Below, piece after piece: positions 1 through 19,625 of a DNA stretch of 32,305 nucleotides. A program made the translations under genes and the position numbers. The notes under the pieces were generated by a model. The model saw only the letters and a program-made list of their open reading frames with translations. It had not been told where the DNA came from and searched no databases. The DNA is from a virus (Duplodnaviria > Heunggongvirae > Uroviricota > Caudoviricetes), in the IMG/VR virus record IMGVR_UViG_2737471861_000014, positions 1-32,305 of that record, one strand, 5' to 3'. How positions within the stretch are numbered: the first letter of the stretch is position 1; every line of letters starts with the position of its first letter.

Positions 1-141
1 ATATTACGTGGGTAGGATCACGCAGGGGTCGGCCCATTTGAGCTTCAGATAGGAACGTTTGAATTCCTTTCACAAAATACATCACATACTGAACGTGAAC
101 ATTCCCACTTTGATCTTAAGGCCAAAAAGTATGCAGGACTA

Positions 142-1860
142 ATGATTTTTAGGGATAGCTTGAGAGTATTACCTTATGGTCGAGTAGATAATGATTTCTT
201 CCAGATAGAAGAAAGACGTTCATGGAATGCAGGGCGATATTATTGGTCTAATAGAAGGATTTTTGGTTATATTGGAATTACTCAATCCAGTAATAAAGAG
301 CTGAAAGATAAGTCGGGGAGAGAGGGATTCATAAGAAACCAGGCTGCAAGAGAACTGAAAACTATTATATCTAATTTGTTAACTGAACTTGCTGATAGAT
401 TTTTTGGTTCACGTTCTGATGACCGTAAAGAGCTTTTAGAACAAGTTAAGCGTGAAAAAGAGTTAAGAAAATCTGCTCAACAACAAGCTCGAAAATCAAC
501 ACAAAAAAGTTTTTCAGAAGCTTTGAAGAATCAGACACCAGTTCTTGATGCTTCCTTGGAGGCTGTTAAAAGGCTGAAAACTAAGCTTGATAAAACTGAT
601 GGTTCGTTAGATTTAAACTATCTTAAAATTATAGACAGTGATCTTACAAACTTAGATGCGTTGCGCAGTGAAATTAAAACGCCTATCAAACCTCCAAAAC
701 TTGGAATGTATGAAGAGAAATATAGAGACTACAGAGATAAATTTAATGAGTTCTCTGCGTATATTCTACAAATGAAGTTAGCAATTAATAAACTTGATTC
801 TGAATTAAATAAACTTGAGCCTTCATTGGCAGCGAAAAATCACCTTGAAAAAAATCAAGGTATTATTAATTCTAAACTAACTAAGTTTAATAACACGATA
901 GAGGAGAAGATACATTCTCTTTTAAAAAAATGGGCCGATGAAATAAAGGTTGATCGAAGTGATTATTATGCTAAAACTATATCAGTTGTTGATTCAATAG
1001 ATAATGATTCACAAATTGAAAATGTGTTTAATTTGCTCGATAGTTTATATGTTGAGTCAGTTGATACCCTAACTTTCAAATATCAATCAATAATAAAAGG
1101 TCTCGATAGATTATTTGAAGGTATAAACTTAGATTCAGCATTCTCATTATCTGAAGAAGAACGCTCATATTTTGAAGAAAAAGCTAAAAGTTTAAACGCG
1201 CTTGCACAGTTAGGTATTAGTGTTGAGATAATATCTCATGAACTTGAAGAAATGGATTCTATGGTAACCAGAGGACTAAACTCTCTTCCTACTTCTGTAA
1301 AAGAACACCCTGGTTTTTCATTGGCGTTAAATGCTCACAGATCGCTTACTCAACAAATACGTTTCTTATCACCTTTGAAAATATCAGGTTATCAATCCAG
1401 GCAGAGAATAACTGGAAAAAATATCATGGATTATGTCCTGAAGTTCTTTGGGGAGCGTTTCGAACGGCAACGAATAACTATTGAATTTAGTGAAGAGTTT
1501 AAGCAAATCGCAATAACAGATATACCATCAAGGATCTATCCTGTTTTTACTAATATTATCAACAATGCAATGTATTGGGTCAGTCTGTCAAATAATAGGC
1601 TCATAAAGATTGGTTTTGTGAATTCTTTGGTTATCATAGCAAATTCTGGTCCGGCAATTGATACCGATGATATCCCGCGACTATTTGAACTATTTTATAG
1701 CAAAAGAGCAAATGGACATGGGGTAGGTCTGTATCTATGTCGAGAAAACCTTGCTGTTGCACATCATAAAATATGGTATTCAGAACCTGATGAAGGCGAT
1801 AACTATTTAATAAAAGATGGCGCTAATTTTGTGATCCAGTTCAATGGAGTGGAGTTCTAA
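142..1860 (+). CDS. Histidine-kinase-like protein: coiled-coil-rich N-terminal region, HisKA-like H-box and HATPase_c (GHKL) ATPase domain; no obvious transmembrane segment
   Basis: ORF of 572 aa. ATG at 142 is preceded by AGGA; all three plus-strand frames have stops within the first 50 nt, so the gene starts inside the window. Motifs read from the translation: H-box-like ISHELEEMD, N-box-like FTNIINNAMYW, G1-like IANSGPAIDTDD, G2-like GHGVGLYLCRE. The N-terminal ~350 aa are K/E/L-rich. Confidence 0.6.
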   Translation: MIFRDSLRVLPYGRVDNDFFQIEERRSWNAGRYYWSNRRIFGYIGITQSSNKELKDKSGREGFIRNQAARELKTIISNLLTELADRFFGSRSDDRKELLEQVKREKELRKSAQQQARKSTQKSFSEALKNQTPVLDASLEAVKRLKTKLDKTDGSLDLNYLKIIDSDLTNLDALRSEIKTPIKPPKLGMYEEKYRDYRDKFNEFSAYILQMKLAINKLDSELNKLEPSLAAKNHLEKNQGIINSKLTKFNNTIEEKIHSLLKKWADEIKVDRSDYYAKTISVVDSIDNDSQIENVFNLLDSLYVESVDTLTFKYQSIIKGLDRLFEGINLDSAFSLSEEERSYFEEKAKSLNALAQLGISVEIISHELEEMDSMVTRGLNSLPTSVKEHPGFSLALNAHRSLTQQIRFLSPLKISGYQSRQRITGKNIMDYVLKFFGERFERQRITIEFSEEFKQIAITDIPSRIYPVFTNIINNAMYWVSLSNNRLIKIGFVNSLVIIANSGPAIDTDDIPRLFELFYSKRANGHGVGLYLCRENLAVAHHKIWYSEPDEGDNYLIKDGANFVIQFNGVEF

Positions 1861-3610
1861 TATGACAGTGGCAAATTATAATTCTCTTGTCCAGAAAACT
1901 TTCTGCGAAAATGCAATTCGTTCCGTTGTCATGATTGATGACGATTTTCTGACGTATTCTGAATCAATCAGGGCGTTGAATAACGAAGTTGATTTAGACT
2001 ACAACAAAATTGACTCATCTAAACGAGCCGCTACTCTTGAGAGCTTTTTTCAATCTAAAAATATGATTTGTGATGTTGACAATGGTTCTGTTAATTTCGA
2101 TGTGGATCGGATTAGGAAATCAGATCTTATTATTGTAGATTATCATCTTGATAATAATGCACCTGATAAAACACTTAAACTATTACAAGATTTGAAAGAC
2201 TCCGATCATTTAAATATGATTGTAATATATACTAGAGAGAATTTAGAAACGGTTTGGATGCAGATATCATCGACTCTCAAAGGTGCTCTGGATATCAACA
2301 GCTTGATCATTGACTACGATAATGAAGATGTCCAAAGTTATTGGGAAGACGTTGTATTACCGAACTTAAATGATAATGGTAATAAAGCTCTCACAAGAGA
2401 TGAAACAATAGCCTATATTAAAGACAGTAAGCCTTGTAGAAGAATTAAAAGATTAATACATGATGATGCTGTGTTGGAGGATCAAAAGGATAAAAACTTC
2501 ATTGCAAAAATGATTGCAGAATATGCTGTGTCTAGAAATGCAATTATTTCTAGCAACACATCTGGCAATGTCATTCGGGGTGATGAAAGCGGAGTAAAAT
2601 GGATTCAATGTGGTAATATCTTTGTCTCCCTATTTCATAAGGTTCAAGATGATCATGAAAACGATGGAGATAGGATTTGGCAAACTCTCAATGATTCTCT
2701 CATTGAATGGAAACCATCTTATTATCAGTTAATAAAATCTGAAATTCAGAATGCAATCGAAGCTGAGGCTTTATCTTTTGTAAATCATTTGGCTAACGAT
2801 CATTACGGTCAAGCTGCGTGGTTAAATGAGATATTAAAATCAGACTCGCCTGATATTAGATGTAGAAATATTGACTTTGTATTTGGTAATTTATCAGAAG
2901 AGCTTTATCAAAGACTTAAAAATAATAATACGCTGGATGAATTTATCAAAAGTGTTTTTGATAGCTATTCAAATGAATACGCTAACAGCGGAGTTGCTGC
3001 ATTGCTCCAATATTGCTCTTCAAAAATGGATCTGCCATCAAATAATGATACTTATCACGAAATGTATCATGCTTTAAATATGAATTTGTCTTCAAAGAAT
3101 TTTGAAGATGGTCATATTTCTACTGGCACTATTTTCTTTGATACAGAGTCGAACAAATGGTATTTATGTGTATCTGCGGCATGTGATTTGGTTCCTACTC
3201 AGGGTAACGACCCTCACCATGTAAGATTAAGTCCGCACAGGCTCATTAAAGTTCTGGAGCTTTTTAACGCCAGTCAGAGTAAAGCATTGCCATTTGCTGA
3301 ACATTCGAAATATATATATGTAATGCATAAAAATCAAAGAAAATATCTCTCTATTTTCGAAGGGGATAAAACGCTTCCTGTTGTTGATTATATGGTGGTG
3401 TTGAATCATGGAACAACAGTTGATGGCGAAGAAAAAAATATTATTTCTGCCGTGTTTTTAAGTAATATGGATGGCAACGTGCAAAATGTTCCTGTCCGAC
3501 TCAAACTTAAATCTCAACTGAGAACTGGTTATGCAGAAAGATATCAGGCTATAGCGTCTCAGTATAGCTCAAGGATTGGTGTGGATTATGTATCAATGAT
3601 GCTACCATAA
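1844..3610 (+). CDS. Receiver (REC)-like domain protein with a ~440-aa C-terminal domain of unknown function
   Basis: ORF of 588 aa whose start overlaps the stop of the upstream gene by 17 nt, suggesting translational coupling. REC-like motifs: acidic pair in RSVVMIDDD, putative phospho-acceptor Asp in DLIIVDYHLD, Thr in MIVIYTRE, then a Lys. No HTH or other known output domain recognised in the C-terminal part. Confidence 0.5.
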   Translation: MEWSSNMTVANYNSLVQKTFCENAIRSVVMIDDDFLTYSESIRALNNEVDLDYNKIDSSKRAATLESFFQSKNMICDVDNGSVNFDVDRIRKSDLIIVDYHLDNNAPDKTLKLLQDLKDSDHLNMIVIYTRENLETVWMQISSTLKGALDINSLIIDYDNEDVQSYWEDVVLPNLNDNGNKALTRDETIAYIKDSKPCRRIKRLIHDDAVLEDQKDKNFIAKMIAEYAVSRNAIISSNTSGNVIRGDESGVKWIQCGNIFVSLFHKVQDDHENDGDRIWQTLNDSLIEWKPSYYQLIKSEIQNAIEAEALSFVNHLANDHYGQAAWLNEILKSDSPDIRCRNIDFVFGNLSEELYQRLKNNNTLDEFIKSVFDSYSNEYANSGVAALLQYCSSKMDLPSNNDTYHEMYHALNMNLSSKNFEDGHISTGTIFFDTESNKWYLCVSAACDLVPTQGNDPHHVRLSPHRLIKVLELFNASQSKALPFAEHSKYIYVMHKNQRKYLSIFEGDKTLPVVDYMVVLNHGTTVDGEEKNIISAVFLSNMDGNVQNVPVRLKLKSQLRTGYAERYQAIASQYSSRIGVDYVSMMLP

Positions 3611-3623
3611 TTATTATATTTTA

Positions 3624-3660
3624 GGCGTGGTGATTTTTTTTCGCCATGCCTATTTTATAT
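3624..3660 (+). terminator. Putative intrinsic terminator between convergent genes
   Basis: Hairpin GGCGTGGTGA / T-rich loop / TCGCCATGCC (with G-U wobbles) followed by TATTTTATAT, immediately after the stop at 3610. Confidence 0.45.
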
Positions 3661-3681
3661 TTATCATCACAATGATGTTGT

Positions 3682-4098
3682 TTATTTTTGTTTAAGTCTT
3701 CTAAGCTTCATGCATTCTAATGAGAATAATAATAGAGTTGTGCTGTATATAAAGCCAGAGTTAGTTAATAACTTTAAATTTAATGCTTCAGGATTTTCAC
3801 TGAGAAAGTGAAAGGCATAAACTAAGTATACAGCTAAAGTAGCCGTTCCAATTGTTGGTCCAATATCGCCTTGATCATGAGGTTCAAGGTTTACATTGAA
3901 CTTGAAGATTAGCCATTCAAATCCCCAAGTAAAAAAAACAACTAATATCATGGCTGCGAATAATTTCGCGATCTTATCTGCTGATGGATTCATCAGAACA
4001 GATTGTTTCTGAAAAAATTCACAAAGTGAGAGTCCGAAAAAAATAAAAAAAAGTGGTCTGGAACTAAATTTTTCAAAAACTTTGAATAGGGTTTCCAT
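3682..4098 (-). CDS. Small hydrophobic (multi-pass membrane) protein, hypothetical
   Basis: ORF of 138 aa with several hydrophobic stretches (LFFIFFGLSL, AAMILVVFFTWGFEWLIF, GTATLAVYLVYAFHFL). AT-rich; lies between the cassette and the integrase. Confidence 0.45.
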   Translation of the reverse strand: METLFKVFEKFSSRPLFFIFFGLSLCEFFQKQSVLMNPSADKIAKLFAAMILVVFFTWGFEWLIFKFNVNLEPHDQGDIGPTIGTATLAVYLVYAFHFLSENPEALNLKLLTNSGFIYSTTLLLFSLECMKLRRLKQK

Positions 4099-4136
4099 TT
4101 TCTTTACCTTCAGGATTATATTAGCTATTCTGATAC

Positions 4137-5408
4137 TTAGGCTACCAGAGCATTTGATCTTTGAGCTTGAACGTAATCACTCCACCATTGCATCAAACTC
4201 TGTCGCTCTATCAGATATTCTGCACGATTGTATGCTGCGATAATTTCATCTTTTTTCGAGTGGGCAAGCGCTGCCTCAAGAACTTCAGCTCTGAATTTAC
4301 CAGACTCCTCTGCCGCTGTTCGTGCAATAGAACGCATACCGTGAGCTACAAGCTCGCCTCCGAACCCCATTCGGATGATAGCTGCGTTGGCTGTTTGTTC
4401 ATGCATATGATTAAGAGGCGCTTTTATGCTGGGGAAAACCCATTCTCTATGCCCACTTATTGATTTCATTAATTCAAGGATGCGCAAAGCTTCTTTACTC
4501 AAAGGAACTTTGTGAAGCTTTTTCATTTTCATGAAATCAGCAGGAATGTTCCAAATGCTGTTGGTTGTATCAATATCAGACCACCTTGCGCGAACGGCTT
4601 CACCCGGACGAACCCATGTCAACAATTGCCATTCAATTAGCATACGTGTTTCCAACCGGATTGACGCATTCGTCAAAGATTCCATAAACCTTGGCAATTC
4701 GCTTGGGGGAAGGGCAGGCATATTTTGCTTTTTTGGTTTACTGAATCTTTGACCAAGGTTGTCAGCCGGGTTGAACTCAATAAGTTCTTCAGTAGCTGCC
4801 CACCGGAAGATTTCATTCAGACGTGAAATGATACGGCGTAGAGTTTCCAATACGCCTCGTTGCTCAATAGGATCAAGGTGTTGTTTTAAGAGCTTAGGTC
4901 GGATCTCATTGATAGGGACATTACCCAGACCGGGAAAGACATTTCTCTCTAAGCTGCGCCAGATGTCTGCTGCATGGTCTTGTGAGATACCTGATGTCTT
5001 TACCTTCTCATCTAACCATTTCCGCGCTACGGCTTGGAGAGTGTGCTCAGTAGCACTCTTTAATGCCTTCGCCTTATCGTTGTTATGGATTTGGGGATCA
5101 ACACCATTTGCCAGAAAGGAGAGATATTCATCACGTAAGGCTCTGGCTCTTGCAAGGGTAAGGTGAGGATATGTCCCAAGGCTCATTTTGGTTCTTTTCT
5201 TGCTCACTGGTACTGCATACCTGAAATACCAATTTTTCTTGCCTCCTTTCGCCAAAGGAGCGATTCGTAGAATCAGACCATCACCGTCAAACAAGTTGAT
5301 TTCTTTATCGGCTGGCTTGGTGCTTTTGATTTCAGTGTCAGTGAGCTTCTTAGCGATTTTTGCCATTTTGGGACCCTCGGTTTTTGGACCCTTCTTAGTG
5401 GGTCCCAT
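4137..5408 (-). CDS. int: Tyrosine recombinase, P4/CP4-57 (IntA-like) integrase family
   Basis: ORF of 423 aa. The N-terminal LTDTEIK..KP motif and overall sequence resemble P4-type integrases. The true start may be the internal Met (MAKIAKKLTDTEIK, about nt 5366). Adjacent to the ssrA 3'-end repeat. Confidence 0.9.
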   Translation of the reverse strand: MGPTKKGPKTEGPKMAKIAKKLTDTEIKSTKPADKEINLFDGDGLILRIAPLAKGGKKNWYFRYAVPVSKKRTKMSLGTYPHLTLARARALRDEYLSFLANGVDPQIHNNDKAKALKSATEHTLQAVARKWLDEKVKTSGISQDHAADIWRSLERNVFPGLGNVPINEIRPKLLKQHLDPIEQRGVLETLRRIISRLNEIFRWAATEELIEFNPADNLGQRFSKPKKQNMPALPPSELPRFMESLTNASIRLETRMLIEWQLLTWVRPGEAVRARWSDIDTTNSIWNIPADFMKMKKLHKVPLSKEALRILELMKSISGHREWVFPSIKAPLNHMHEQTANAAIIRMGFGGELVAHGMRSIARTAAEESGKFRAEVLEAALAHSKKDEIIAAYNRAEYLIERQSLMQWWSDYVQAQRSNALVA

Positions 5409-5531
5409 TCAGGGTGCCATAACTCGTAGTTCTCAGCAATTCTCACTGGACGACAATAGACGTAAAAAAGCCCGCAGAGCTTGTGCTGTGTGGGCTTAGT
5501 AGACTTCATTGAACTTCAAACAACTAAAAAG

Positions 5532-5576
5532 TGGTGGAGCTGGCGGGAGTTGAACCCGCGTCCGAAATTCCTACAT
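5532..5576 (-). repeat. ssrA: 45-bp fragment identical to the 3' end of tmRNA gene ssrA (T-arm, acceptor stem and CCA): attachment-site repeat
   Basis: Reverse complement reads ATGTAGGAATTTCGGACGCGGGTTCAACTCCCGCCAGCTCCACCA, matching the E. coli ssrA 3' terminus as I recall it. Flanking sequence on the 5' side (5577 onward) is AT-rich and unrelated to tmRNA, so this is not a complete gene. Confidence 0.8.
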
Positions 5577-5768
5577 ACCATTTTTATTATAGTAAAAACA
5601 GTAGATTATGTTTGAAAACAATGTGTTAGTGTTATTTTGTATTTGCTCGTCTTACGCGTTTTTAATGCTCTGCCGCCAAAGTGCCGCCATTACATCAAGC
5701 ATCTAGAATAAAATTAGTTAATAAATTATAATTAATATGCTAATTGTTCTTGCATTCATAAGTGGGAC

Positions 5769-7505
5769 GTGATGAAAGAAAAAAAATTCGTTAGTGAGCT
5801 TTTCCTTGAAAATGGGCAGTTTATTTTAGTCGGTTTGACAGGTCGAACTGGTTCTGGTTGCACAACAACAGCTAATATTCTTGAAAACGAAAAAACAGTC
5901 TTCCCTGATGTAAGTAAATTACAGGGGTTTTACAAGGGATTGGATGTCCATCGTTATAATATAGTTAAAAAATTCGCAGAAAATCACTGGGAAAATTTTT
6001 ACTCAATTAAGGTGAGTGACCTAATCTCAGCGTATCTTCTGATGTTAACAGTTGAGGAAGCTTCTGAATTCATTCTATCATCTAATAAATTTATCAGTAA
6101 AGAGCATTTAGATATTGTATTAACTTTTGGTGTATTCTCAGATAATCTCATTTTGACAAGATTTAAAAATGTAATTGAGAATTTGCTTGATCATAATAGT
6201 GAATTGAAGTTTGATGAAAAAACGATTAATAAATTTATATCAATTTTGAAGTTAGTTAGAAAATTTACTAAAGAATTCAAAGCTGAACTAAATGAGATAA
6301 ACTCAAATTTATATGTTTCAGCCTATCAGTTAGCAGGTAAGTCAATTAGACGTCGTGGGCGTATTGAAGTCGATTTTGAAGATAAAGAGTTTATGCCTAA
6401 ATCTGTTTTTCATTTGCCGGAAACTATTAATAGGGTTATTAAATTAATAAGAAAAAGCAAAAGAGATAACGCATTAATTGTCATAGATGCTATTAGAAAT
6501 CCATATGAGGCAAAATTTTTTAAGGATAGATATTCTGCATTTCATTTAATGTCAATAAATGCCCCAGATGAACATCGAACAAACTATTTGCGGAAACTAC
6601 ATAAGTTTTCAGAAAAGCAGATAGAGGAAATAGATTCTGTAGAGTCAGGTAAAGGTGATAACTCTTACAAACATCTCACCAATCCAAATGTAACTAAATG
6701 TATTGAACTATCAGATATACACATTTTTAACCCAAAAAATGAATTTGATAATGACAATATTTTAAAAGCACAATTAGCGTGGTACATCGCACTGATGAAG
6801 CATCCTGGTCTGATAACACCTACTGCAATGGAAAGGGTTATGCAAGTTGCGTATACGGTAAAATTAAACTCTGGCTGTATATCTAGACAGGTGGGAGCTG
6901 TAGTAACTGATGGTGATAATTCAATAAAATCAGTTGGTTGGAATGATGTTGCCAACGGTCAGATTCCTTGCTCTATGAGATCTCTAGATGGCCTAATGAA
7001 CGATTTTGATGAAAAAACGTACAGTCATTATGAGAGAAATAATAGTTCTTTCAGAATTAAAGCTAATGAGAAACTCTTAAATTTTAGGGCGATAGATAAA
7101 ACTGGTGATATTTATAGAGGCAGGAACTTATCTTATTGTTTTAAAGATATACATAATGATCTTGATAAAGAGAAAAAAGGTAATCAAGTTCATACACGTG
7201 CATTACATGCTGAGGAAAACGCATTTTTACAACTTGCAAAATATGGTGGTATTGGCGTTCTGGGGGGGAAGTTGTATACAACTGCCAGTCCCTGTGAGTT
7301 GTGTGCGAAAAAAGCTTATCAGTTAGGTATATCTGAAATTGTATTTATTGATCCCTACCCAGGTATAGCTCAAGACCATATTATTAATATAGGTAGTAAG
7401 CCACCAAAGTTAATACAATTTAGAGGCGCAATTGGGAAGTCATATCACCGACTTTATGAGCAAATTATCCCGATAAAAGATGAGTTAGAATATCTCCTTG
7501 AGTAG
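5769..7505 (+). CDS. P-loop kinase-like N-terminal domain fused to a zinc-dependent cytidine/dCMP-deaminase-fold C-terminal domain; dCTP-deaminase-type antiphage defence protein (candidate)
   Basis: ORF of 578 aa. Walker-A-like GLTGRTGSGCTT near the N-terminus. C-terminal deaminase zinc motifs HAEENA and SPCELCAKK. AT-rich; located between the att repeat and the prophage integrase. Start is GTG 5769 or ATG 5772. Confidence 0.65.
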   Translation: MMKEKKFVSELFLENGQFILVGLTGRTGSGCTTTANILENEKTVFPDVSKLQGFYKGLDVHRYNIVKKFAENHWENFYSIKVSDLISAYLLMLTVEEASEFILSSNKFISKEHLDIVLTFGVFSDNLILTRFKNVIENLLDHNSELKFDEKTINKFISILKLVRKFTKEFKAELNEINSNLYVSAYQLAGKSIRRRGRIEVDFEDKEFMPKSVFHLPETINRVIKLIRKSKRDNALIVIDAIRNPYEAKFFKDRYSAFHLMSINAPDEHRTNYLRKLHKFSEKQIEEIDSVESGKGDNSYKHLTNPNVTKCIELSDIHIFNPKNEFDNDNILKAQLAWYIALMKHPGLITPTAMERVMQVAYTVKLNSGCISRQVGAVVTDGDNSIKSVGWNDVANGQIPCSMRSLDGLMNDFDEKTYSHYERNNSSFRIKANEKLLNFRAIDKTGDIYRGRNLSYCFKDIHNDLDKEKKGNQVHTRALHAEENAFLQLAKYGGIGVLGGKLYTTASPCELCAKKAYQLGISEIVFIDPYPGIAQDHIINIGSKPPKLIQFRGAIGKSYHRLYEQIIPIKDELEYLLE

Positions 7506-7885: not shown

Positions 7886-8902
7886 CTATCTTAAGTTGCA
7901 TAAAGGGTTTTTAGTTACCGCATCTTCAAGGTGATCGGGCGAAAAGTGGGCGTAAATCATCGTCATTTTTATATCGGCATGGCCCAGAATATCGCGCAGC
8001 ACCAGTATGTTTCCGCCATTCATCATAAAATGGCTGGCGAATGTATGACGTAGCACGTGAGTGCATTGGCCCTCTGGCAGCTCGATGCCAGCTCGCTTTA
8101 CTGCTCGTTCAAAGGCTTTTCTGCACGGGGTGAATAGCTTCCCTCTGTTCTTGGGGAGTTCGTCATACAGATCTTGAGATATCGGCACGGTGCGGTTTTT
8201 CTTACCCTTCGTCTTGGTATAAGTGATGCGGTATTTAGATAACTGATGGCCCTGCAGGTTTTCAGCTTCACTCCAGCGTGCGCCGGTGGCCAGGCATATT
8301 TTTGCAATCAAAAGCAGACTGGGGTTTTGAGAATCAGCGCAGGCATCTAGCAGACGTTTAATTTCTTCCGAGGTCAGGAACGCCAGTTCCCCCTCAGCGA
8401 TTTTAAATGTTGGCAGCCCGGCGAGAGGATTTGGTGCTGACCAGTGGCCTAGTTTTTTCAATGTGCCGAAAACCGATGATAGGTTACGTTGCTCAAGATT
8501 CACCGTGCGTGGTTTTACTGGCGACATTAGTGTGCCGTCTTCGTTACGAACGTCACCTTTTAACCGTGCTTCGCGGTATTTCGTAAAGTCACCGGCTGTC
8601 AGTTCTGAGGCGATGGGGTCGCCTAGACCATTACAGATAATTCTAAGTTTCGCCATGAGGCGCTTGGGGTCTGCGAGTGTCTGACCATACAGGGAATACC
8701 AAAGCTCAATTAATTCTGATAGGCGTCGCCGATCATCCTTTTCACCCAACCACGGTTTTTTATTCACTTCTTCCATTGTGAAGCTTTCAAAAGCAATGGC
8801 TTCGCCTTTCGTAGCAAATTGCTTACGCACGCGCTTACCATTGCGTCCATTGGGATAGCACTCACACAACCATTTTCCGTTCGGCTGTTTTCTGATGGTC
8901 AT
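7886..8902 (-). CDS. int: Prophage integrase, P2/186 tyrosine recombinase family
   Basis: ORF of 338 aa, the same length class as P2/186 Int. The C-terminal region contains HVLRHTFASHF and LGHADIKMTMIYAH, typical of the catalytic R/H/Y region. Sits immediately downstream of the CI-like gene. Confidence 0.9.
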   Translation of the reverse strand: MTIRKQPNGKWLCECYPNGRNGKRVRKQFATKGEAIAFESFTMEEVNKKPWLGEKDDRRRLSELIELWYSLYGQTLADPKRLMAKLRIICNGLGDPIASELTAGDFTKYREARLKGDVRNEDGTLMSPVKPRTVNLEQRNLSSVFGTLKKLGHWSAPNPLAGLPTFKIAEGELAFLTSEEIKRLLDACADSQNPSLLLIAKICLATGARWSEAENLQGHQLSKYRITYTKTKGKKNRTVPISQDLYDELPKNRGKLFTPCRKAFERAVKRAGIELPEGQCTHVLRHTFASHFMMNGGNILVLRDILGHADIKMTMIYAHFSPDHLEDAVTKNPLCNLR

Positions 8903-8903
8903 A

Positions 8904-9536
8904 TCAAAGGCTCTTAATGATTTTCAGTGCGCGGCCTACTACCTCAATGTCATCTAGGCCACACTCAAACGATGAATCATCCTGATGCACTACTAATTTG
9001 TTTCCCGGAAGTCGAGTCAATTTAACAATGCTTTTTATCCCGTCAATATCGACTAACCACATACCATTTACTGGTGGTGTTTGGTTGCGATCTATTAAAT
9101 AAGAATCACCAGAAGTAGTCACCAGCAGTAGGTTGCTTGAGTCTGAGGGGAGTATGCTGCTATCAATGATTGCTTTTCCAGCATCGACCAATAAACCACC
9201 GTTGAGAGTCGCCTTGTCAATTTCAGGAGATACTAGTTCAGAAAGAGGTACAACCTTGCTGGAGTTCACGGAATTGATATTTTTTTTAGGTTCAATGTTT
9301 GGACCTGGCTCCCCCTGTCCGGTGGTTAGCCACAGTAAAGAAACTCCTGTTTCCAAGGCGCACTGAATCACCCACTCTGCAGGAAAACTATCTCTTAAGT
9401 ATCTGTTTGCCATGGTGCTTTTTGATGCGCCTAAGTGATCGCAAAGTTGCTGTCTGGACTTGAAATCATAGGCTGCCATTAGTCTATGGATAGCCTCTCT
9501 TCCCCCTGTATTCTCTCCAACCTTTACCTGTATCAT
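8904..9536 (-). CDS. cI: CI-type immunity repressor (186-like)
   Basis: ORF of 210 aa directly upstream of int and divergent from the apl/cII operon. N-terminal HTH-like region. Position and size fit the 186 CI family. Confidence 0.75.
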   Translation of the reverse strand: MIQVKVGENTGGREAIHRLMAAYDFKSRQQLCDHLGASKSTMANRYLRDSFPAEWVIQCALETGVSLLWLTTGQGEPGPNIEPKKNINSVNSSKVVPLSELVSPEIDKATLNGGLLVDAGKAIIDSSILPSDSSNLLLVTTSGDSYLIDRNQTPPVNGMWLVDIDGIKSIVKLTRLPGNKLVVHQDDSSFECGLDDIEVVGRALKIIKSL

Positions 9537-9930: not shown

Positions 9931-10440
9931 ATGTTTGATTATAAGATTTCCAAACACCCGCATTTTGATGAAGCCTGTAGAGCTTTTGCACTTCGTCACA
10001 ATATGGCGAAGCTGGCAGAACGTTCAGGAATGAATGTCCAGACTCTGCGAAACAAACTCAACCCAGATCAACCGCATCAGCTCAATGCGCCAGATATCTG
10101 GCTACTTACCGATCTGACGGAAGATTCAACGCTGGTAGACGGTTTTCTGGCACAGATTCACTGCCTGCCATGTGTACCGATTAATGAGGTGGCAAAAGAG
10201 AAACTGCCACATTACGTCATGAGTGCAACCGCAGAGATCGGGCGTGTTGCTGCAGGTGCGGTATCTGGCGATGTAAAAACCAGTGCAGGTCGTCGTGATG
10301 CTATCAGCAGCATTAACTCTGTTACACGACTGATGGCGTTAGCTGCTGTTTCATTGCAGGCCCGTTTACAGGTTAATCCTGCGATGGCAAGTGCAGTTGA
10401 TACTGTAACCGGCCTCGGTGCTTCATTCGGTTTGCTGTGA
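9931..10440 (+). CDS. cII: CII-like transcriptional activator
   Basis: ORF of 169 aa (the same length as 186 CII) following the apl-like gene. N-terminal HTH-like segment (NVQTLRNKLNPDQ). Confidence 0.65.
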   Translation: MFDYKISKHPHFDEACRAFALRHNMAKLAERSGMNVQTLRNKLNPDQPHQLNAPDIWLLTDLTEDSTLVDGFLAQIHCLPCVPINEVAKEKLPHYVMSATAEIGRVAAGAVSGDVKTSAGRRDAISSINSVTRLMALAAVSLQARLQVNPAMASAVDTVTGLGASFGLL

Positions 10441-11481: not shown

Positions 11482-12335
11482 GCACCATCCTGAAATGGGC
11501 GGGAAATAAAACCGCCATTATGTCCGAACTGAAAAAACACCTTCCTGCTGGCCCGCGACTGGTTGAACCTTTCGCGGGTTCCTGTGCTGTGATGATGGAG
11601 ACGGATTACCCCAGCTATCTTGTTGCGGATATTAATCCTGATTTAATCAACCTCTATAAAAAGGTTGCTGCTGATTGTGAGGCATTTATATCTCGTGCCA
11701 GAGCTTTATTTGAGGAAGCAAACAGGGAGGTGGCTTATTACAACATAAGGCAGGAGTTTAATTACTCCACTGAAATTACTGATTTCATGAAAGCGGTATA
11801 TTTTCTGTATCTCAATCGTCATGGTTACCGTGGGTTATGTCGCTATAACAAGAGCGGGTATTTCAACATTCCCTACGGTAATTATAAAAATCCGTATTTC
11901 CCTGAAAAAGAAATTCGCGCATTTGCAGAGAAAGCCCAGCGGGCAACGTTTATCTGCGCCAGCTTTGATGAAACGCTGGCGATGTTGAAGGCGGGGGATG
12001 TGGTGTATTGCGATCCGCCGTATGACGGCACGTTTTCCGGTTATCACACTGACGGCTTCACTGAAGATGACCAGTATCACCTGGCATCCGTTCTTGAACA
12101 TCGGTCATCAGAAGGACATCCGGTCATTGTTTCTAACAGTGACACATCCCTGATCCGTTCGCTGTATCGCAATTTTACTCACCACTACATCAAGGCAAAA
12201 CGCAGCATCGGCGTAGCAGCTGGTGAGAGTAAATCTGCAACAGAAATCATCGCTGTTTCTGGGGCGCGCTGCTGGGTGGGATTTGATCCTTCGCGTGGCG
12301 TGGATAGTTCTGCCGTGTACGGAGTGCGTGCATGA
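11478..12335 (+). CDS. dam: DNA N6-adenine methyltransferase (Dam-like, D12 class)
   Basis: N-terminus [11 protein letters not shown] and catalytic DPPY motif ([10 protein letters not shown]). ATG at 11478 with GGAGG RBS, overlapping the upstream stop. Confidence 0.85.
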
Positions 12336-14746
12336 GCCATGCTGATATGAACAACTGCAGCGGCTTTAACGAGGCCGCCGCAGCATTCTCATGGGACAGC
12401 CCGAAAAAGGCTATTAACCCTTATCTGGACCCGGCAGAAGTTGCGCCGGTTTCTGCGCTTTCAAACCTGATCACTCTGTACGCTGCCGATAACGAGCAGG
12501 AACAACTGCGCCGCGAGGCACTGAGTGATCAGGTCTGGGAGCGTTATTTCTTTAATGAATCCCGTGATCCTGTCCAGCGCGAAATGGAGCAGGATAAGCT
12601 CATTAGCCGGGCAAAGCTGGCGCATGAGCAGCAGCGTTTTAATCCGGATATGGTCATTCTGGCGGACGTCAACGCCCAGCCTTCCCATATCAGCAAGCCG
12701 CTGATGCAACGTATTGAATACTTCAGCAGCCTGGGCAGGCCAAAGGCTTATTCCCGCTATTTGCGTGAGACGATTAAGCCATGTCTGGAACGACTGGAGC
12801 ATGTACGCGAGAGTCAGCTATCCACTTCTTTTCGCTTTATGGCAAGCCATGAAGGGCTGGACGGCCTGCTGATCCTGCCTGAAATGAGTCAGGATCATGT
12901 GAAACGCCTGTCCACCCTGGTAGCTGCGCATATGAGCATGTGCCTTGATGCAGCTTGTGGCGATTTGTATGCCACCGATGACGTTAAGCCAGAAGAAATC
13001 CGCAAGACATGGGAAAAGGTGGCGGCGGAAACCCTGCGTCTGGATGTCATCCCACCTGCGTTTGAGCAACTCCGTCGGAAAAGAAACCGCCGTAAACCCG
13101 TGCCCTATGAACTCATACCGGGTTCGCTGGCGCGTATGTTGTGCGGCGACTGGTGGTATCGGAAATTATGGAAGATGCGTTGCGAATGGCGGGAAGAGCA
13201 GTTGCGCGCTGTTTGCCTGGTCAGCAAAAAAGCATCTCCTTATGTCAGCTATGAAGCCGTGATGCATAAACGTGAGCAGCGCCGTAAGTCGCTGGAGTTT
13301 TTCCGTTCTCATGAACTGGTGAACGAAGACGGCGACACGCTGGACATGGAGGATGTGGTAAACGCCAGCAGCAGCAACCCTGTGCATCGCCGCAATGAGA
13401 TGATGGCCTGTGTTAAAGGTCTGGAGCTTATCGCGGAAATGCGCGGTGACTGCGCCGTTTTCTACACTATCACCTGTCCGTCGCGTTTCCATTCCACGCT
13501 AAATAACGGCAGACCAAACCCGACCTGGACAAACGCGACGGTAAGACAAAGCAGCGATTATCTGGTCGGCATGTTTGCTGCATTTCGTAAGGCGATGCAC
13601 AAAGCCGGGTTGCGCTGGTATGGCGTGCGGGTGGCTGAGCCGCATCATGACGGCACAGTTCACTGGCACCTGTTGTGTTTCATGCGCAAAAAAGACCGCC
13701 GTGCCATCACTGCATTACTGCGTAAGTTTGCCACCCGTGAAGACCGCGAGGAGCTGGGCAATAACACTGGGCCGCGCTTTAAGTCTGAGTTGATTAACCC
13801 GCGCAAAGGAACGCCGACAAGCTACATCGCGAAATATATCAGTAAGAACATTGACGGTCGTGGTCTGGCTGGCGAGATCAGCAAGGAAACGGGTAAATCT
13901 CTGCGTGATAACGCTGAATACGTGAATGCCTGGGCGTCTCTGCATCGTGTTCAGCAATTCCGCTTCTTTGGTATTCCGGGGCGTCAGGCTTACCGTGAAC
14001 TTCGCTTGCTGGCTGGTCAGGCGGCAAGGCAACAGGGTGACAAAAAAGTAGGTGCGCCGGTACTGGATAACCCGCGTCTTGATGCCATTCTGGCTGCTGC
14101 TGATGCTGGTTGTTTTGCCACCTACATCATGAAGCAGGGCGGCGTACTGGTTCCCCGTAAATATCACCTCATCAGAACCGCTTATGAAATCAACGAAGAG
14201 CCGACCGCCTATGGCGATCACGGCATTCGTATTTATGGCATCTGGTCACCCATTGCAGAGGGCAAGATCTGCACTCATGCAGTGAAGTGGAAAATGGTTC
14301 GTAAAGCCGTTGACGTTCAGGAGGCGGCAGCCGACCAGGGCGCTTGCGCCCCTTGGACTCGTGGCAATAACTGTCCCCTTGCTGAAAATTTGAACCAACA
14401 AGGGAAAGACAAATCAGCTGATGGGGATACCAGAACGGATATCACCCGCATGGATGACAAGGAGTTGCACGATTACCTGCACAGTATGAGCAAAAAAGAG
14501 CGCCGGGAACTGGCAGCAAAATTACGCATGGTTAAACCGAAACGGCGTAAAGACTACAAACAGCGAATTACAGAGTATCAGCGTCAGCAGCTCGTCTATG
14601 AACTGAAGTCCAGAGGATTTGATGGCAGCGAGAAAGAGGTCAATTTGCTCCTTCGCGGCGGCAGTATTCCGTCAGGAGCAGGCCTGCGTATCTTCTATCG
14701 GCACCAGCGTTTGCAGGAAGATGATAAGTGGCGAAACCTGTATTAA
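12332..14746 (+). CDS. A: Replication initiation protein A (P2 gpA-family rolling-circle initiator)
   Basis: ORF of 804 aa with [13 protein letters not shown] and [12 protein letters not shown] motifs characteristic of the P2 A family. Positioned after the early genes. Confidence 0.85.
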
Positions 14747-14898: not shown

Positions 14899-15087
14899 AT
14901 GCAGGACTATTTTTTGGAGTCTTTGAAGCTCCAGCGCATTGATTTTTTTCTTAAGCTTGTAGCGGCTAGTGAGTGTAGTGATGAAGAGAAGGGGCTGGCC
15001 CTGCAGTGGGTTTCTGAACTGACAGATGAACTCATGGCAAAAATCAGAACCCACGAATACAACCGCTCAATGGATGTCATCAGCTGA
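14899..15087 (+). CDS. Hypothetical small protein, first gene of a putative SOS-inducible operon
   Basis: ORF of 62 aa. ATG preceded by AGGAGG. Its stop overlaps the RBS of the next gene. Confidence 0.4.
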   Translation: MQDYFLESLKLQRIDFFLKLVAASECSDEEKGLALQWVSELTDELMAKIRTHEYNRSMDVIS

Positions 15088-15097
15088 GGTGACTTTT

Positions 15098-15331
15098 ATG
15101 CGCATTGAAATAATGATCGATAAAGAGCAGAAGATTAGCCAGTCTACCCTGAACGCCCTTGAATCCGAGCTTTACCGCAATCTGCGCCCCCTATATCCAA
15201 AAACGGTAATTCGCATCCGCAAAGGTAGCTCTAACGGTGTGGAACTGACCGGACTGCAACTGGACGAAGAAAGGAAGCAAGTGATGAAAATTATGCAGAA
15301 AGTGTGGGAAGACGACAGCTGGCTGCATTAA
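15098..15331 (+). CDS. dinI: DinI-family protein (Tum/DinI-like, SOS-associated)
   Basis: 77 aa from the ATG at 15098 (GAGGTGA RBS). MRIEI... N-terminus and C-terminal VWEDDSWL resemble E. coli DinI (MRIEV ... WESADDWF). Confidence 0.7.
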   Translation: MRIEIMIDKEQKISQSTLNALESELYRNLRPLYPKTVIRIRKGSSNGVELTGLQLDEERKQVMKIMQKVWEDDSWLH

Positions 15332-15644: not shown

Positions 15645-16742
15645 TTGCCGAGAAAGATCAGGTTAAGGGGATGTATTGTGGCTGAGAACGGACCGATAGA
15701 AGAATTAGCAAAGATAGTATCATCGAAGATTTTTGAGCGCTTTAAATGGAGCATATCAGGGCCGTGTGATCAGGACTTTGGATGTATTGACGAAGAAAAT
15801 CATAAACCACTCGAAAAAAAGCAGGCTCATACACACCCTGTCGATGTGGTTTTTAGCTATAAAGACCCTTATTTAAATAAAACTATTTTATTGAATACTG
15901 ACCTAAAAAGTTACTCTAAGGGTTCTATTAATCCTGACATGATAGAAAAAGCGCTGACATCCCTAGGGTATACAATTTCCTGTGCTCAATATAGTCCGGA
16001 GTGGAGAGAGAAATATAATATATGCGTTGGGGATAGTGAGGTTAGAGGGTTATTGTTTGTTTATAATCATGATAACGATTTTGAGCATAACTTTTATGAT
16101 TTCTTCGATCCTCCCAAACCTGCAGGAAGAAAAAGAAAGCCGAAGGCAGTTAAATTAGATAATATAAAAGTGTCTGATGGGCAACAAATACATATAATTG
16201 AGCCTAAGTCGATTAGCTATATGTTATCTATAATCGCAGATATGAATGAATTAATCAGAGATAATCAATTCCCGAGAGATGAGTATGGTTTTTATTACCC
16301 TCAACTTACATATCATAAGGTAATTGTCACCGATGATTATTTACCTGCAACGATAGAGTCTTTGACTGCTCCATTTTTAATTATTAAACATGATGCAGTT
16401 TACTCGTATGATCGCGAGCTACAAAGAGAAGTTGAAGTTTATCCTGCAGGGTATGTTGTATATTATAATCGTCCGGGCTCCACAGATATGGAGTTTTATT
16501 ATCTCTTTGATCTTTTAACTAACTACCAGATTCTGAATGGAAAAAACAACATAAGAATACGTATCGCGACAAAAGATCGGAATGATTCAATAAGATCGCA
16601 TTTTAAACGGGCACTTCAGAAGTATGCTTTTGATTGGAATTATGATGATAGTGCAAAGGAAAAACTACTTTCTATGGATATTTATTTAGTTCCTACAGTT
16701 AAAGAGTTTTATAGTACTGAATCAACATCTTGGGATTATTGA
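15645..16742 (+). CDS. Hypothetical protein, gene 1 of an AT-rich three-gene cargo cassette
   Basis: ORF of 365 aa. Start is TTG 15645 or, more likely, GTG 15678 (AAGGGG RBS 7 nt upstream). Possible PD-(D/E)xK-like spacing (HPVDVVF ... NTDLK) near the N-terminus, a weak motif-level guess. No recognisable phage structural or replication homology. Confidence 0.55.
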   Translation: MPRKIRLRGCIVAENGPIEELAKIVSSKIFERFKWSISGPCDQDFGCIDEENHKPLEKKQAHTHPVDVVFSYKDPYLNKTILLNTDLKSYSKGSINPDMIEKALTSLGYTISCAQYSPEWREKYNICVGDSEVRGLLFVYNHDNDFEHNFYDFFDPPKPAGRKRKPKAVKLDNIKVSDGQQIHIIEPKSISYMLSIIADMNELIRDNQFPRDEYGFYYPQLTYHKVIVTDDYLPATIESLTAPFLIIKHDAVYSYDRELQREVEVYPAGYVVYYNRPGSTDMEFYYLFDLLTNYQILNGKNNIRIRIATKDRNDSIRSHFKRALQKYAFDWNYDDSAKEKLLSMDIYLVPTVKEFYSTESTSWDY

Positions 16743-16743
16743 T

Positions 16744-17868
16744 ATGAGCAATATTTATAGTGTGACGGATAAGGTTTTATGTGATGCTCTTAACCAGTCA
16801 CAAGTAACTCAAAATGAGATGAGAGAGCTTTATCTTTCAAGAGGTATAATTATTTCAAAAAACACCGATAGAAAATTATTAGCTAAAAACTTCTCAAAGT
16901 TCACTCATGATTACTATGATCATCAGAAAATTGCAGAGATATTAGGAAGTGAGCCTCGGAGGGAGCGTTCTACTTCAAGATTAGTATCTAATATGCCTGA
17001 AAAAACAATTTTATTAAAAGCGGCGGATTCGCTAAAAAAAGAGCTAACAGACCAAAAAGACCTCTGCCATATAGTTGCTGATAAAAGTGGCATGATAAAT
17101 ATTCATATAACTTATATGTCAACAAATTTTTCAAAAAGTGATTTCAAACAAGTCGTTAAAAAGCAAGCTGTCATAGAGGTAGAGCCAACAGAAGCTGGTT
17201 ATGTGATTCGCCGTCCAGATAATGAGCAAACTGAGGTTTATGAGAATCAGTTACTTGCTATCGTTGAAAGATTATCAAAGGAAAGAGCGATTGAGGAAGG
17301 AAAACCAATTTCGGACGCTACTCTCGATATCCAAGAAATAAGTCTAGAAAACATTGATTCCCCTCAGTCCAGAACTGATTTCTTTACGAAATTAATAAAT
17401 GGGCTTGAAGGTTATGAACTCGATGATGTAACAGATGCTTATGTTTATCACCCAAAACCAGAAGAGATTGAAGAGGAAGACGGCGAAACAGATTTAGGAG
17501 TACATGTTAGTAAGGCATCGTTGAAAGGGGAAGGGGTGCTCAAATCTGAAGAAATCAACTCACTTTATGAGCGTGGCTTTTATATATGTAAAATTAAATG
17601 GCGAGTTAAAGAGAAAGGTGCGGATCCAAATATTTTTGAGTTTGAAGCGCAATTTAACGACGCTCAAAATTTTAAGGGGTTTTCATATATAGCTAAAGGT
17701 ATTAAAAAATACAAAGGGGGTGGCGAGTATAATAAGTCAACAGTCCAGTTGAAAGATAGTCAGAAGTTATTTTTTAGTCGTATGATTGAAAAGGCAGCCC
17801 GTTCCATTATAATTGAACTAAATAAACAGGCTCAGGGGAAGAAAGATGGAAAGTCTGATCAGAGTTAA
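16744..17868 (+). CDS. Hypothetical protein, gene 2 of the three-gene cargo cassette
   Basis: ORF of 374 aa starting 1 nt after the gene 1 stop. Contains an acidic stretch (EEIEEEDGETD). No recognisable domain. Confidence 0.55.
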   Translation: MSNIYSVTDKVLCDALNQSQVTQNEMRELYLSRGIIISKNTDRKLLAKNFSKFTHDYYDHQKIAEILGSEPRRERSTSRLVSNMPEKTILLKAADSLKKELTDQKDLCHIVADKSGMINIHITYMSTNFSKSDFKQVVKKQAVIEVEPTEAGYVIRRPDNEQTEVYENQLLAIVERLSKERAIEEGKPISDATLDIQEISLENIDSPQSRTDFFTKLINGLEGYELDDVTDAYVYHPKPEEIEEEDGETDLGVHVSKASLKGEGVLKSEEINSLYERGFYICKIKWRVKEKGADPNIFEFEAQFNDAQNFKGFSYIAKGIKKYKGGGEYNKSTVQLKDSQKLFFSRMIEKAARSIIIELNKQAQGKKDGKSDQS

Positions 17869-18547
17869 ATGGAATAGATTGAAGTCTAATCTTACATTAA
17901 GTGAGATTGCTTTTTATATAAAGAGTAACAAATACTCTGAAGAACTTGGCTATGGTTATTCTGACTTTGAAGTTTCATCTGACGTACTATCAGCTACGTA
18001 TACTGAAGCTAAGTTGAATAAACAGACTTCAGTTGATCCTTTGGGTAACGAAAATGAACAAGAGTTCATTACTTATGAGTCAATTCAGTTCTCTATATCT
18101 AAACTCATAGGTAGGTTATATTTATTATCAGTTTACAATCCACCAAAATCAATAAAGGCTTTGACAGAGCGACTTAGTGCGGATTCAGGTTATAAAATAG
18201 GGTTTGGCATCGTTGATATTAAACTGTCTGAGTATTTGGATTCGCTGCATAAAAAATATGATTTGGAACTTGTTAGTATCAAGAAGGTTAAGGTTAGTAA
18301 TTTGATAGTTAATGATAACTCTAAGGCAACCGTAGAGGTTACATCTAAGAAAAATGCATTTGATGATGTGAAGGATATTATTGGGGATAAAGCATATTCT
18401 CTTGATAAGGTCAGGGCGGCAGGATATGTTCTAGGACATCGTTGTGAATTTGAGATATCGAAGAATGGTTCTGTCTGTGCTAACGAGGGTATGGTTAAAT
18501 ATTTAACTGAGACAATAGTTTCTCATATTCTTGAAAGGGAAATTTAA
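17846..18547 (+). CDS. Hypothetical protein, gene 3 of the three-gene cargo cassette
   Basis: ORF of 233 aa whose start overlaps the end of gene 2 by 23 nt, preceded by a GGGGAAGAAAG RBS. No recognisable domain. Confidence 0.55.
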   Translation: MESLIRVKWNRLKSNLTLSEIAFYIKSNKYSEELGYGYSDFEVSSDVLSATYTEAKLNKQTSVDPLGNENEQEFITYESIQFSISKLIGRLYLLSVYNPPKSIKALTERLSADSGYKIGFGIVDIKLSEYLDSLHKKYDLELVSIKKVKVSNLIVNDNSKATVEVTSKKNAFDDVKDIIGDKAYSLDKVRAAGYVLGHRCEFEISKNGSVCANEGMVKYLTETIVSHILEREI

Positions 18548-18590: not shown

Positions 18591-19625
18591 TCAAAGAGTT
18601 AGTTCATATTTTTCAAAACGCATAATTTTCTCCCCTAACCATTCATTGAGCCCCTCGAGTTGTTTTTGTAGAGGCATCAGTTCGTTACGGACAAAGACGC
18701 AACTGGCCTTCTCCACATCCCCAAACCCGCCAACATTACTTGGCATAATCCCCATCATCTGTGGTGGCACGCGGTGCGCAGCCATCATGTCATCACGGCT
18801 CACGTTCTTGATATTCAGAAACTCATCCTTCGCTGCGACTTCTGACAACGGGATAATCTGAAGTCCGTCCTTTTTGCCGTTAGGCGAGTACATAAACAGA
18901 TTGCGGAAGTTGCCAGGGCCTTTGGCGCTTTTCATCGCGTTGCGGAGGTTGTTCACATCCTCCTGGTTCTGCGCGGCATCGGTCATATACATGATGAAGC
19001 CTGCATGGCTGCCGTTGATGTAATACTTACGGCGGAACAGCGTGGCGGACTCGTTGAGCAGGGCTGACGGAATGGCAGAAAGATAACCGGGCAGGCCGTA
19101 GATCTCCTGATTAATATCCGGTTCCATCAGATGAAAAATGCTGCCTTTCGTGAACTGATACGGCTGGGTTGTCATACCGTATTGCACAAACCAGTAGGTA
19201 TCCAGGTCTAATCCGCGTCGGGTGTATTTTGCCAGCGCAGGTTCAAGGGCGATCACTTCACCGAAGCGGTTCGTGCGTTTCTCCAGATAGGCATTGCCAA
19301 ATACCAGATAGTCCTGCACAAAACGCGAAAAAGCCTGCTGGCTGAGCAGAGGATGAGGGATATAGGTACTGGTCAGAATGTTACACTTTACTGCAATCGG
19401 GGAACTGTGATGCACGGCAGCGCGGAAGGTGCGCGCCAGTCCGTCAAAGCTGACGGGAGGCTCATACCAGCGGTCCATCTGTACGCATTCCACATAGTCC
19501 AGCAGTTCACGGCGGTCCAGAACAGGAACGGGATCGCCGAAGCTGAATGCTTCGGCTGTAGTTTGACTTTTAAGCTGGATCTGTTTCGTCGCCGCAGCTC
19601 GGTTCTTCTTACTCTTTCCCATCAA
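18591..19625 (-). CDS. Q: Portal protein (P2 gpQ family)
   Basis: ORF of 344 aa (P2 Q is the same length), adjacent and co-oriented with the terminase ATPase gene. Confidence 0.85.
   Translation of the reverse strand: MMGKSKKNRAAATKQIQLKSQTTAEAFSFGDPVPVLDRRELLDYVECVQMDRWYEPPVSFDGLARTFRAAVHHSSPIAVKCNILTSTYIPHPLLSQQAFSRFVQDYLVFGNAYLEKRTNRFGEVIALEPALAKYTRRGLDLDTYWFVQYGMTTQPYQFTKGSIFHLMEPDINQEIYGLPGYLSAIPSALLNESATLFRRKYYINGSHAGFIMYMTDAAQNQEDVNNLRNAMKSAKGPGNFRNLFMYSPNGKKDGLQIIPLSEVAAKDEFLNIKNVSRDDMMAAHRVPPQMMGIMPSNVGGFGDVEKASCVFVRNELMPLQKQLEGLNEWLGEKIMRFEKYELTL

Follow-up and report, generated by a model that had tools for sequence, protein, structure and literature searches.

A kinase–receiver gene pair in Escherichia coli as the probable remnant of a mobile methylase–kinase–receiver triad

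The window analyzed here is a stretch of 32,305 nucleotides (nt), positions 1 to 32,305 of the IMG/VR virus record IMGVR_UViG_2737471861_000014 (Caudoviricetes). At its left end lie two adjacent genes on one strand (Table 1): gene 1, which encodes a histidine-kinase-like ATPase, and gene 2, which encodes a receiver protein. Their GC content is 0.33-0.35, against ~0.55-0.59 in most of the neighboring prophage to the right, and an integrase of the P4 family lies close by. A reading made from the sequence alone (the sequence-only reading) had noticed this AT-rich setting, as the present analysis confirms, and had proposed that the pair might be a distinct, self-contained two-gene phospho-signalling defense system carried by a P4-like satellite. 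In the profile searches that it called for, gene 1 matched PF19191 and HATPase_c, gene 2 matched PF19192, and neither protein had a PADLOC match at E≤0.01.

Gene 1 is not a complete gene. No stop codon interrupts its frame between nt 16 and the ATG, and the closest full-length proteins (P0003-P0013, from Salmonella, Serratia and Klebsiella) are 99% identical, 988 amino acids (aa) long, and have an extra N-terminal HATPase_c_3 domain. In alignment A2 the product of gene 1 corresponds to residues 376-988 of the full-length kinase, the start of the open reading frame (ORF) falling at residue 376/417, and the N-terminal HATPase_c_3 (paraMORC) module of the 988-aa orthologs is absent from the window ORF. 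The 988-aa protein is soluble and joins an N-terminal paraMORC-type GHKL ATPase to a histidine-kinase core made up of a HEF_HK DHp domain and HATPase_c. The absence of a membrane sensor, correctly noted for the window ORF, holds only because the N-terminal paraMORC GHKL ATPase was deleted. Likewise, what looked like a coiled-coil N-terminal half is the middle portion of the full-length kinase, and it gave that impression because the deletion took the GHKL/paraMORC ATPase and everything upstream.

The kinase core is retained, and the H-box and HATPase_c motifs that had been recognized by eye are borne out by both family matches. The phospho-acceptor histidine of the H-box is residue 366 of the 572-aa ORF (CAT, nt 1237-1239) and H782 of the full-length kinase. 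It is invariant in alignment A2, as are the HATPase_c motifs, including the N and G2 boxes. In the HEF_HK domain the core histidine is followed by an acidic residue, and the motif SHELEE is invariant. The G1 box (nt 1639-1653) is atypical in reading N-S-G-P instead of the usual D-x-G-x-G, and its asparagine is invariant in 18 of 18 aligned homologs. By sequence, generic kinase catalytic domains were the sole PDB matches of gene 1. No promoter-like sites were found on the plus strand upstream of nt 826.

The truncation coincides with the end of an insertion sequence, IS3. In E. coli genomes identical to the window, an IS3 transposase coding sequence stops 11 nt short of window nt 1, and on its far side IS3 is flanked by a truncated alpha-amylase pseudogene adjoining glaH-lhgO-gabDTP. 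Homology to an intact, Serratia-type element (L002) begins at window nt 20/21; nt 20-5575 are 99.0% identical to L002 11127-16681, in which the kinase gene starts at 10001. The methylase gene and the first 375 kinase codons, comprising the entire N-terminal ATPase, are missing in the window. No linked C5 cytosine DNA methylase is found left of the kinase there; IS3 occupies that side and is the only feature left of the gene pair. An IS3-associated deletion in this E. coli lineage removed the rest of the element, the methylase gene and kinase codons 1-375.

Gene 2 appears as a 588-aa ORF, and the methionine at its position 7 is kept in 90% of 202 homologs. The corresponding ATG at nt 1862 is preceded by GGAG and lies 1 base after the TAA of gene 1 (1858-1860), so that the genes abut and do not overlap as had been thought. 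The Response_reg_2 domain (PF19192, E 3.7e-31) adjoins the kinase gene and has the Asp/Asp/Asp/Thr/Lys residues of a receiver. Among 202 diverse members, conservation is complete (100%) at D32, D94, D99 (at the end of beta-3), T130 and K266 and reaches 92% at D33. Because of this conservation, the phosphotransfer chemistry of the receiver, and hence its phospho-acceptance, is judged to be under strong selection. The receiver domain fused to an unassigned domain, as first described, was confirmed, with a revision of size: the receiver fold runs to K266, which leaves a C-terminal part of ~320 residues (286-588) instead of ~440. No DNA-binding family was found in gene 2 in the Pfam and NCBIfam scans, in agreement with the sequence-only reading. 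Three cysteines are highly conserved among the 202 members: C76 (nt 2069-2071; 94%) in the receiver domain, and C442 (nt 3167-3169; 90%) and C447 (nt 3182-3184; 100%) in the 'CVSAAC-D' strand of the C-terminal module.

The C-terminal part (~320 residues) matched no model in Pfam, NCBIfam or PADLOC, and the family profile of gene 2 found nothing in the PDB by sequence. The predicted structure of the whole protein has a pLDDT (predicted local distance difference test) score of 86.6 with AlphaFold2, and the C-terminal 303 residues modeled alone (pLDDT 85.6) form a helical and a beta-rich subdomain. Foldseek searches of the latter model against the PDB gave nothing significant. The likeness to the MazF/Kid/CcdB fold is weak: identity is 4-11%, Foldseek reports no significant match, and the module has in addition a helical subdomain of ~130 aa. 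P291, N412, G428 and C447 are invariant in the module in the 202 members, and R577-x-G579-x-D581 is nearly so; to our knowledge, C447, N412, G428 and the RxGxD motif are not the catalytic set of MazF. Among 1.84 billion representative proteins the module occurs in 305 clusters, and nearly all full-length matches are C-terminal in proteins of ~550-770 aa that share the architecture of gene 2. Shorter matches in this profile-free search look like fragments, and no informative domain swap was found among these representatives. The module is specific to this family, and the MazF/CcdB-like resemblance, its sole structural lead, is taken as a lead only. A 453-aa 'partial' form of gene 2 (P0128) looks like a contig-end fragment and was not used as evidence of decay.

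Elsewhere the two genes belong to a larger operon. In loci L002-L008 a C5 DNA methylase gene (402-417 aa) is followed by the kinase gene (988-994 aa) and the receiver gene (581-582 aa). The methylase and kinase genes overlap by 20 nt, and the receiver gene starts after a 1-nt gap from the kinase stop. Conservation of this triad was assessed in one genome per species, with loci located by a receiver-protein profile; 44 loci were obtained, 39 of them with enough flank to judge, and a kinase was called full-length if N-terminal, middle and C-terminal profiles all matched. A full-length kinase gene lies directly upstream of the receiver gene in 38 of the 39 informative loci and a C5 methylase is present in 37, in one of which its gene is split. 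An HNH gene was found in 3/44 loci. The sole truncated, methylase-less locus of the 39 is L016, which is of the E. coli type and 100% identical to the window. The view of gene 1 and gene 2 as a kinase-like protein paired with a receiver-effector on horizontally acquired DNA holds, and its other half, that the pair is self-contained, does not.

Two of these loci need comment. L016 is a 5.6-kb contig (DAIPZW010000118.1) labeled as part of a Bacteroidales metagenome-assembled genome; its receiver gene is 100% identical to that of the E. coli copy and it has the same kinase truncation, and it is probably an E. coli contig that was mis-binned. In L047 (3861-5075, Magnetospirillum sulfuroxidans) the methylase is represented by two ORFs (190 + 214 aa) beside intact kinase and receiver genes, possibly as another decaying copy or by a sequencing frameshift.

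The carriers of the intact triad are mobile. In other Enterobacterales (L002, L005) the intact element is integrated in ssrA and has a relaxase, two further tyrosine recombinases and small unknown ORFs. No P4 hallmark gene (alpha primase-helicase, sid, delta, psu, cos) was seen in L002 or L005, as judged by Pfam listings and not by dedicated P4 models. The triad rides an integrative, relaxase-bearing element inserted in ssrA; a P4-like satellite is not its carrier, and 'P4-like cargo slot' is valid only loosely, in the sense of a P4-family integrase. In Acinetobacter the triad is cargo adjoining Tn7-like transposition genes (tnsB-E), together with an HTH (helix-turn-helix) controller gene, and in an Acidobacteria genome it lies beside conjugation genes (type IV secretion, ArdC, ParB). 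The left flank of the triad in L002 (1-3634) and L005 (1-3411) consists of two consecutive tyrosine recombinases and a 543-624-aa protein without a Pfam domain, with the relaxase further on. The recombinase pair with the 543-624-aa protein recalls the 'Gamma-Mobile-Trio' elements; one E. coli match (H1) has a gene annotated gapS1 nearby.

Within E. coli, the truncated pair with the same junction is found at ≥99% identity in 560 of 5,426 complete genomes (~10%). The missing 5' part, that is, the methylase gene and the kinase N-terminus, was not found at high identity by megablast in the complete E. coli genomes. Because the 560 copies are at least 99% identical, they appear to reflect a single recent event inherited by descent and not independent retention. 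In O111 strains decay has gone further, with loss of IS3 and disruption of the integrase by IS1203/IS629. The stretch had in fact been annotated as a 'remnant integrative element' with a 'histidin kinase-like protein' in GenBank entry AJ304858.2, the CP-1639 integration site. Four PHROG families (phrog_8137, phrog_7659, phrog_30547 and phrog_6556) match the truncated locus end to end, one 572-position profile being the truncated kinase ORF. These families appear to derive from host DNA and not from phage genes, likely because the records for CP-1639 (AJ304858.2) and phi467 (LN997803.1) extend into host DNA at their flanks. A separately acquired intact triad, with ~70% DNA identity, is present in 212/5,426 complete E. 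coli genomes. In E. coli SE15 (L013, NC_013654.1 4539140-4556470) the next gene after the triad bears the annotation of a phosphorothioated-DNA-binding HNH restriction endonuclease, and ArdC and MobH relaxase genes lie near.

Table 1. Features of the window. Coordinates are nt of the window; receiver residues are numbered after the 588-aa ORF.
Feature	Coordinates	Strand	Remarks
IS3 end (right terminal repeat), last 20 nt	1-20	+	deletion junction
Truncated paraMORC/histidine-kinase gene	22-1860	+	encodes residues 376-988 of 988-aa protein
Gene 1 ORF	142-1860	+	572 aa; ATG at 142 is the first ATG past the junction
HEF_HK (DHp-like) domain	1207-1383	+	PF19191, 26.0 bits (cut-off 24.1)
HATPase_c catalytic domain	1525-1800	+	PF02518, E 2e-11
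HATPase_c boxes	from 1552 (N), 1639 (G1, 'NSGP'), 1681 (F), 1714 (G2)
Receiver-effector gene (gene 2)	1862-3610	+	582 aa from conserved ATG; ORF list 1844-3610, 588 aa
Receiver (REC) fold	1916-2641	+	with helical insertions
Receiver residues	1937-1942, 2138-2140, 2231-2233, 2639-2641		acidic pocket D32/D33; acceptor D99; T130; K266
Family-specific C-terminal module	2699-3607	+	helical subdomain and beta-rich subdomain
Terminator-like hairpin	3622-3652	+	12-bp stem, then T run; between convergent genes
138-aa hydrophobic ORF	3682-4098	-	convergent to gene pair
P4-family (CP4-57-type) tyrosine integrase	4137-5408	-	NCBIfam PRK09692, 440 bits; Pfam Arm-DNA-bind_3, Phage_int_M, Phage_integrase
ssrA (tmRNA) 3' fragment	5532-5601	-	attachment-site copy bounding element; Rfam tmRNA partial match, E 1.4e-9
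Anti-phage dCTP deaminase, full-length	5769-7505	+	PADLOC dCTPase E 1.3e-145; NCBIfam NF041025, 425 bits (cut-off 400)
P2-like prophage	7886-32305		tandem insertion at ssrA
P2-like integrase	7886-8902
CI-like repressor ORF	8904-9536
Replication protein GPA	12332-14746
DinI-like	15026-15331
Three AT-rich genes, DinI-like to portal interval	15645-18547	+	PADLOC Hp1, Hp2, Hp3: E 7e-64, 2e-47, 1.5e-8
Portal	18591-19625
Terminase	19622-21388

The family to which the pair belongs is not new, and the expectation of a distinct system was thus not upheld. PF19191 and PF19192 were built on this HEF_HK/Response_reg_2 gene pair, of which E. coli members served as representatives, and the comparative study gave 91.6% as the linkage of the two genes, counted HATPase_c_3 in 83% of kinases, and noted C5 methylases encoded upstream (Bellieny-Rabelo, Pretorius and Moleleki 2021, PMC8011034). 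Its authors proposed, with no experiments, that the pair regulates restriction-modification (R-M), and did not address the C-terminal receiver module. The window shares with the described pair both domains above threshold, the soluble kinase and the gene adjacency, and the intact orthologs share also the upstream C5 methylase and the kinase N-terminal HATPase_c_3. The window copy has lost both of these through the deletion. A match to an already-described family, named beforehand as a result that would speak against a new system, was therefore obtained in part, through PF19191 and PF19192. No defense family beyond the methylase was found when the full-length kinase ortholog and both window proteins were compared with PADLOC, NCBIfam and Pfam.

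The closest experimentally validated relative is Ambrosia of Pseudomonas aeruginosa, which consists of AbrR (XRE), AbrA (N6 methylase), AbrB (HATPase_c_3/HATPase_c kinase), AbrC (receiver, ~209 aa, with a reported winged HTH) and AbrD (HNH), and in which the receiver mutation D60A abolishes defense (bioRxiv 10.1101/2025.09.30.679545). A member of the AbrB gene family is annotated HEF_HK in Table S1 of the same preprint. Ambrosia and the present family share a methylase, a soluble paraMORC-type kinase and a receiver protein. The full-length kinase ortholog matched AbrB residues 1-399 in the GHKL part (E 6e-11) and in the RVxPYG region (E 4e-6), of which the window ORF keeps only the second. AbrC, in contrast, had no similarity to gene 2 by BLASTP or hhalign; it lacks a large C-terminal module, whereas gene 2 has 582 aa and a different C-terminal module. 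The methylase is of the N6 type in Ambrosia and of the C5 type here, the HNH nuclease that is a core gene there was found in few loci here, and an XRE/HTH regulator is seen here only in some loci (Acinetobacter). No N6 adenine methylase, HNH nuclease or XRE regulator is present in the window cluster. This family is a sister architecture of Ambrosia, not a member of it.

A likeness to the Detocs defense system had also been noted. The logic is shared: for phage defense, a kinase passes phosphate to a receiver domain joined to an effector that does not bind DNA. Coupling to a DNA methylase sets the present family apart from Detocs. The locus has no TPR sensor kinase, stand-alone buffer receiver, or PNP or other known effector, and no PADLOC match to Detocs parts at E≤0.01, so it is not Detocs. 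The Hpt component ascribed to that system was mistaken, since DtcB is a stand-alone receiver (Rousset et al. 2023, bioRxiv 10.1101/2023.01.24.525353). The N-terminal GHKL ATPase with HATPase_c_3 and the linkage to a cytosine methylase are shared by the full-length ortholog with the paraMORC ATPases, the module concerned being deleted in the window. The paraMORC1-5 families carry or accompany nucleases and helicases, and for none of them has a fusion to a histidine-kinase core been described (Iyer, Abhiman and Aravind 2008, PMC2292703). Two further candidates were set aside: the methylation-associated system MADS, whose preprint text has no such kinase or receiver components, and WonAB/VcSduA of V. 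cholerae, an unrelated GHKL-Shedu fusion that surfaced through the term 'paraMORC'.

Taken together, these data make it probable that the locus is the 3' remnant of a mobile triad, that the intact system is an R-M-like, phosphorylation-gated defense system, and that the copy in the window is an inert relic. In the intact triad, self DNA would be marked by the C5 methylase, and the paraMORC ATPase clamp would sense the state of the DNA or infection. Autophosphorylation of the H-box histidine (H782; H366 in the relic ORF) would then be switched on, the phosphate would pass to D99 of the receiver, and the C-terminal receiver module, the likely effector, would be released. The module is the best candidate for this role because most loci have no other candidate effector gene. 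By analogy, Ambrosia lends support to a defensive role of the intact triad. Methylase, sensor ATPase and a promoter of its own are all missing from the window copy, and for this reason it is most likely inert, the product of one deletion event inherited by descent.

Several points weigh against parts of this interpretation. In the E. coli genomes examined, neither ORF is disrupted. The complete DHp-CA core, which the remnant keeps, suffices for autophosphorylation in other kinases, and IS3 lies in the same orientation as the genes and could supply read-through transcription. Changes between the window and L002 number 4 synonymous/4 non-synonymous and 11/1, the latter in gene 2, and are too few for dN/dS to decide on selection; the ratio in gene 2 fits continued constraint, though most of the divergence may predate the truncation. 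As for the intact system, the Ambrosia methylase does not protect, and the authors prefer transcriptional control over a direct effector (bioRxiv 10.1101/2025.09.30.679545). The proposal that the two ORFs are a complete two-gene anti-phage system, cargo of a P4-like satellite, draws on several of the same points, namely the intact ORFs with their H-box, ATP-binding and receiver residues preserved and the 11 synonymous to 1 non-synonymous changes of gene 2, as well as on the persistence of the pair in ~10% of complete E. coli genomes and on the known defense systems among the neighboring genes. There is only a slim chance that it is right, as the kinase ORF begins at the IS3 junction without 375 N-terminal residues and the operon promoter, nearly all species loci have the full-length kinase and the methylase, the near-identity of the E. 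coli copies points to one recent event, and the Pfam listings show a relaxase in the intact carrier but none of the P4 hallmark genes. A slender prospect at best is that the kinase core and receiver-effector were exapted in E. coli and act independently of the methylase, constitutively or by IS3 read-through, with the C-terminal domain being a new kind of toxin, gated by phosphorylation and based on a MazF/CcdB-like barrel that has an invariant cysteine.

An alternative for the intact family is that kinase and receiver form a regulatory two-component system that activates transcription of the linked R-M genes, the C-terminal module binding DNA or protein instead of acting as effector. Such transcriptional control has been put forward by Bellieny-Rabelo et al. 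(PMC8011034) and for Ambrosia (bioRxiv 10.1101/2025.09.30.679545). We regard it as unlikely for this family, since an HTH or other DNA-binding family was found in 0/59 members scanned, most loci lack a separate nuclease to be regulated, the invariant Cys, Asn and Gly with RxGxD resemble an active or binding site more than they do a generic winged HTH, and AbrC shows no detectable similarity to gene 2. That the pair is a housekeeping cytoplasmic two-component regulator of the host can hardly be entertained. The catalytic domain alone of the kinase has weak, sub-threshold NCBIfam similarity to AtoS-, PhoR- and DcuS-type kinases, with scores far below the family cut-offs; no DNA-binding output was found, GC is 0.34, the pair occurs in integrative elements or by Tn7-like transposition or conjugation genes and is linked to a DNA methylase in 37/39 loci, and only ~10% of E. 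coli genomes carry it. The patchy distribution and the location on mobile elements effectively refute a housekeeping role.

The surroundings of the relic are rich in defense genes, as the sequence-only reading had anticipated. The hydrophobic 138-aa ORF follows the receiver gene in L002-L008 and is absent from the Acinetobacter and Acidobacteria loci; scans against Pfam, NCBIfam and PADLOC gave no match, and its one PHROG match was built on the same locus. It accompanies the module in Enterobacterales only and is probably not a core component. Beyond the integrase, nt 5464-5541 (minus strand) have a partial Rfam match to the Salmonella island small RNA IsrM (53 bits, gathering threshold 376) that abuts the tmRNA fragment; rather than a small RNA gene, it probably marks sequence that ssrA islands have in common at their integrase-proximal end. 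Where genomes lack the extra prophage, full ssrA and smpB come directly after. In the window the dCTP deaminase gene is flanked by the ssrA attachment fragment on one side and by the integrase of the neighboring P2-like prophage on the other. This slot looks like a variable cargo position because in a different E. coli strain it holds an unrelated hypothetical gene (L001 17693-18724). Within the P2-like prophage, the genes matching Hp1, Hp2 and Hp3 have no Pfam domains; we take this trio to be the three-hypothetical-protein ('3HP') candidate system known from P2 hotspots.

In itself the window carries little weight, being a decayed copy of a module that already has Pfam families, a comparative paper from 2021 and a remnant label in GenBank. 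It does call for a correction of annotation, as what thousands of E. coli assemblies contain as a 572-aa 'ATP-binding protein' is the product of a truncated gene, and scans for defense systems should leave the kinase-receiver relic pair out of their system counts. The intact triad is the better target: it is widespread on mobile elements, the chemistry of its receiver is invariant, and its distant relative Ambrosia defends.

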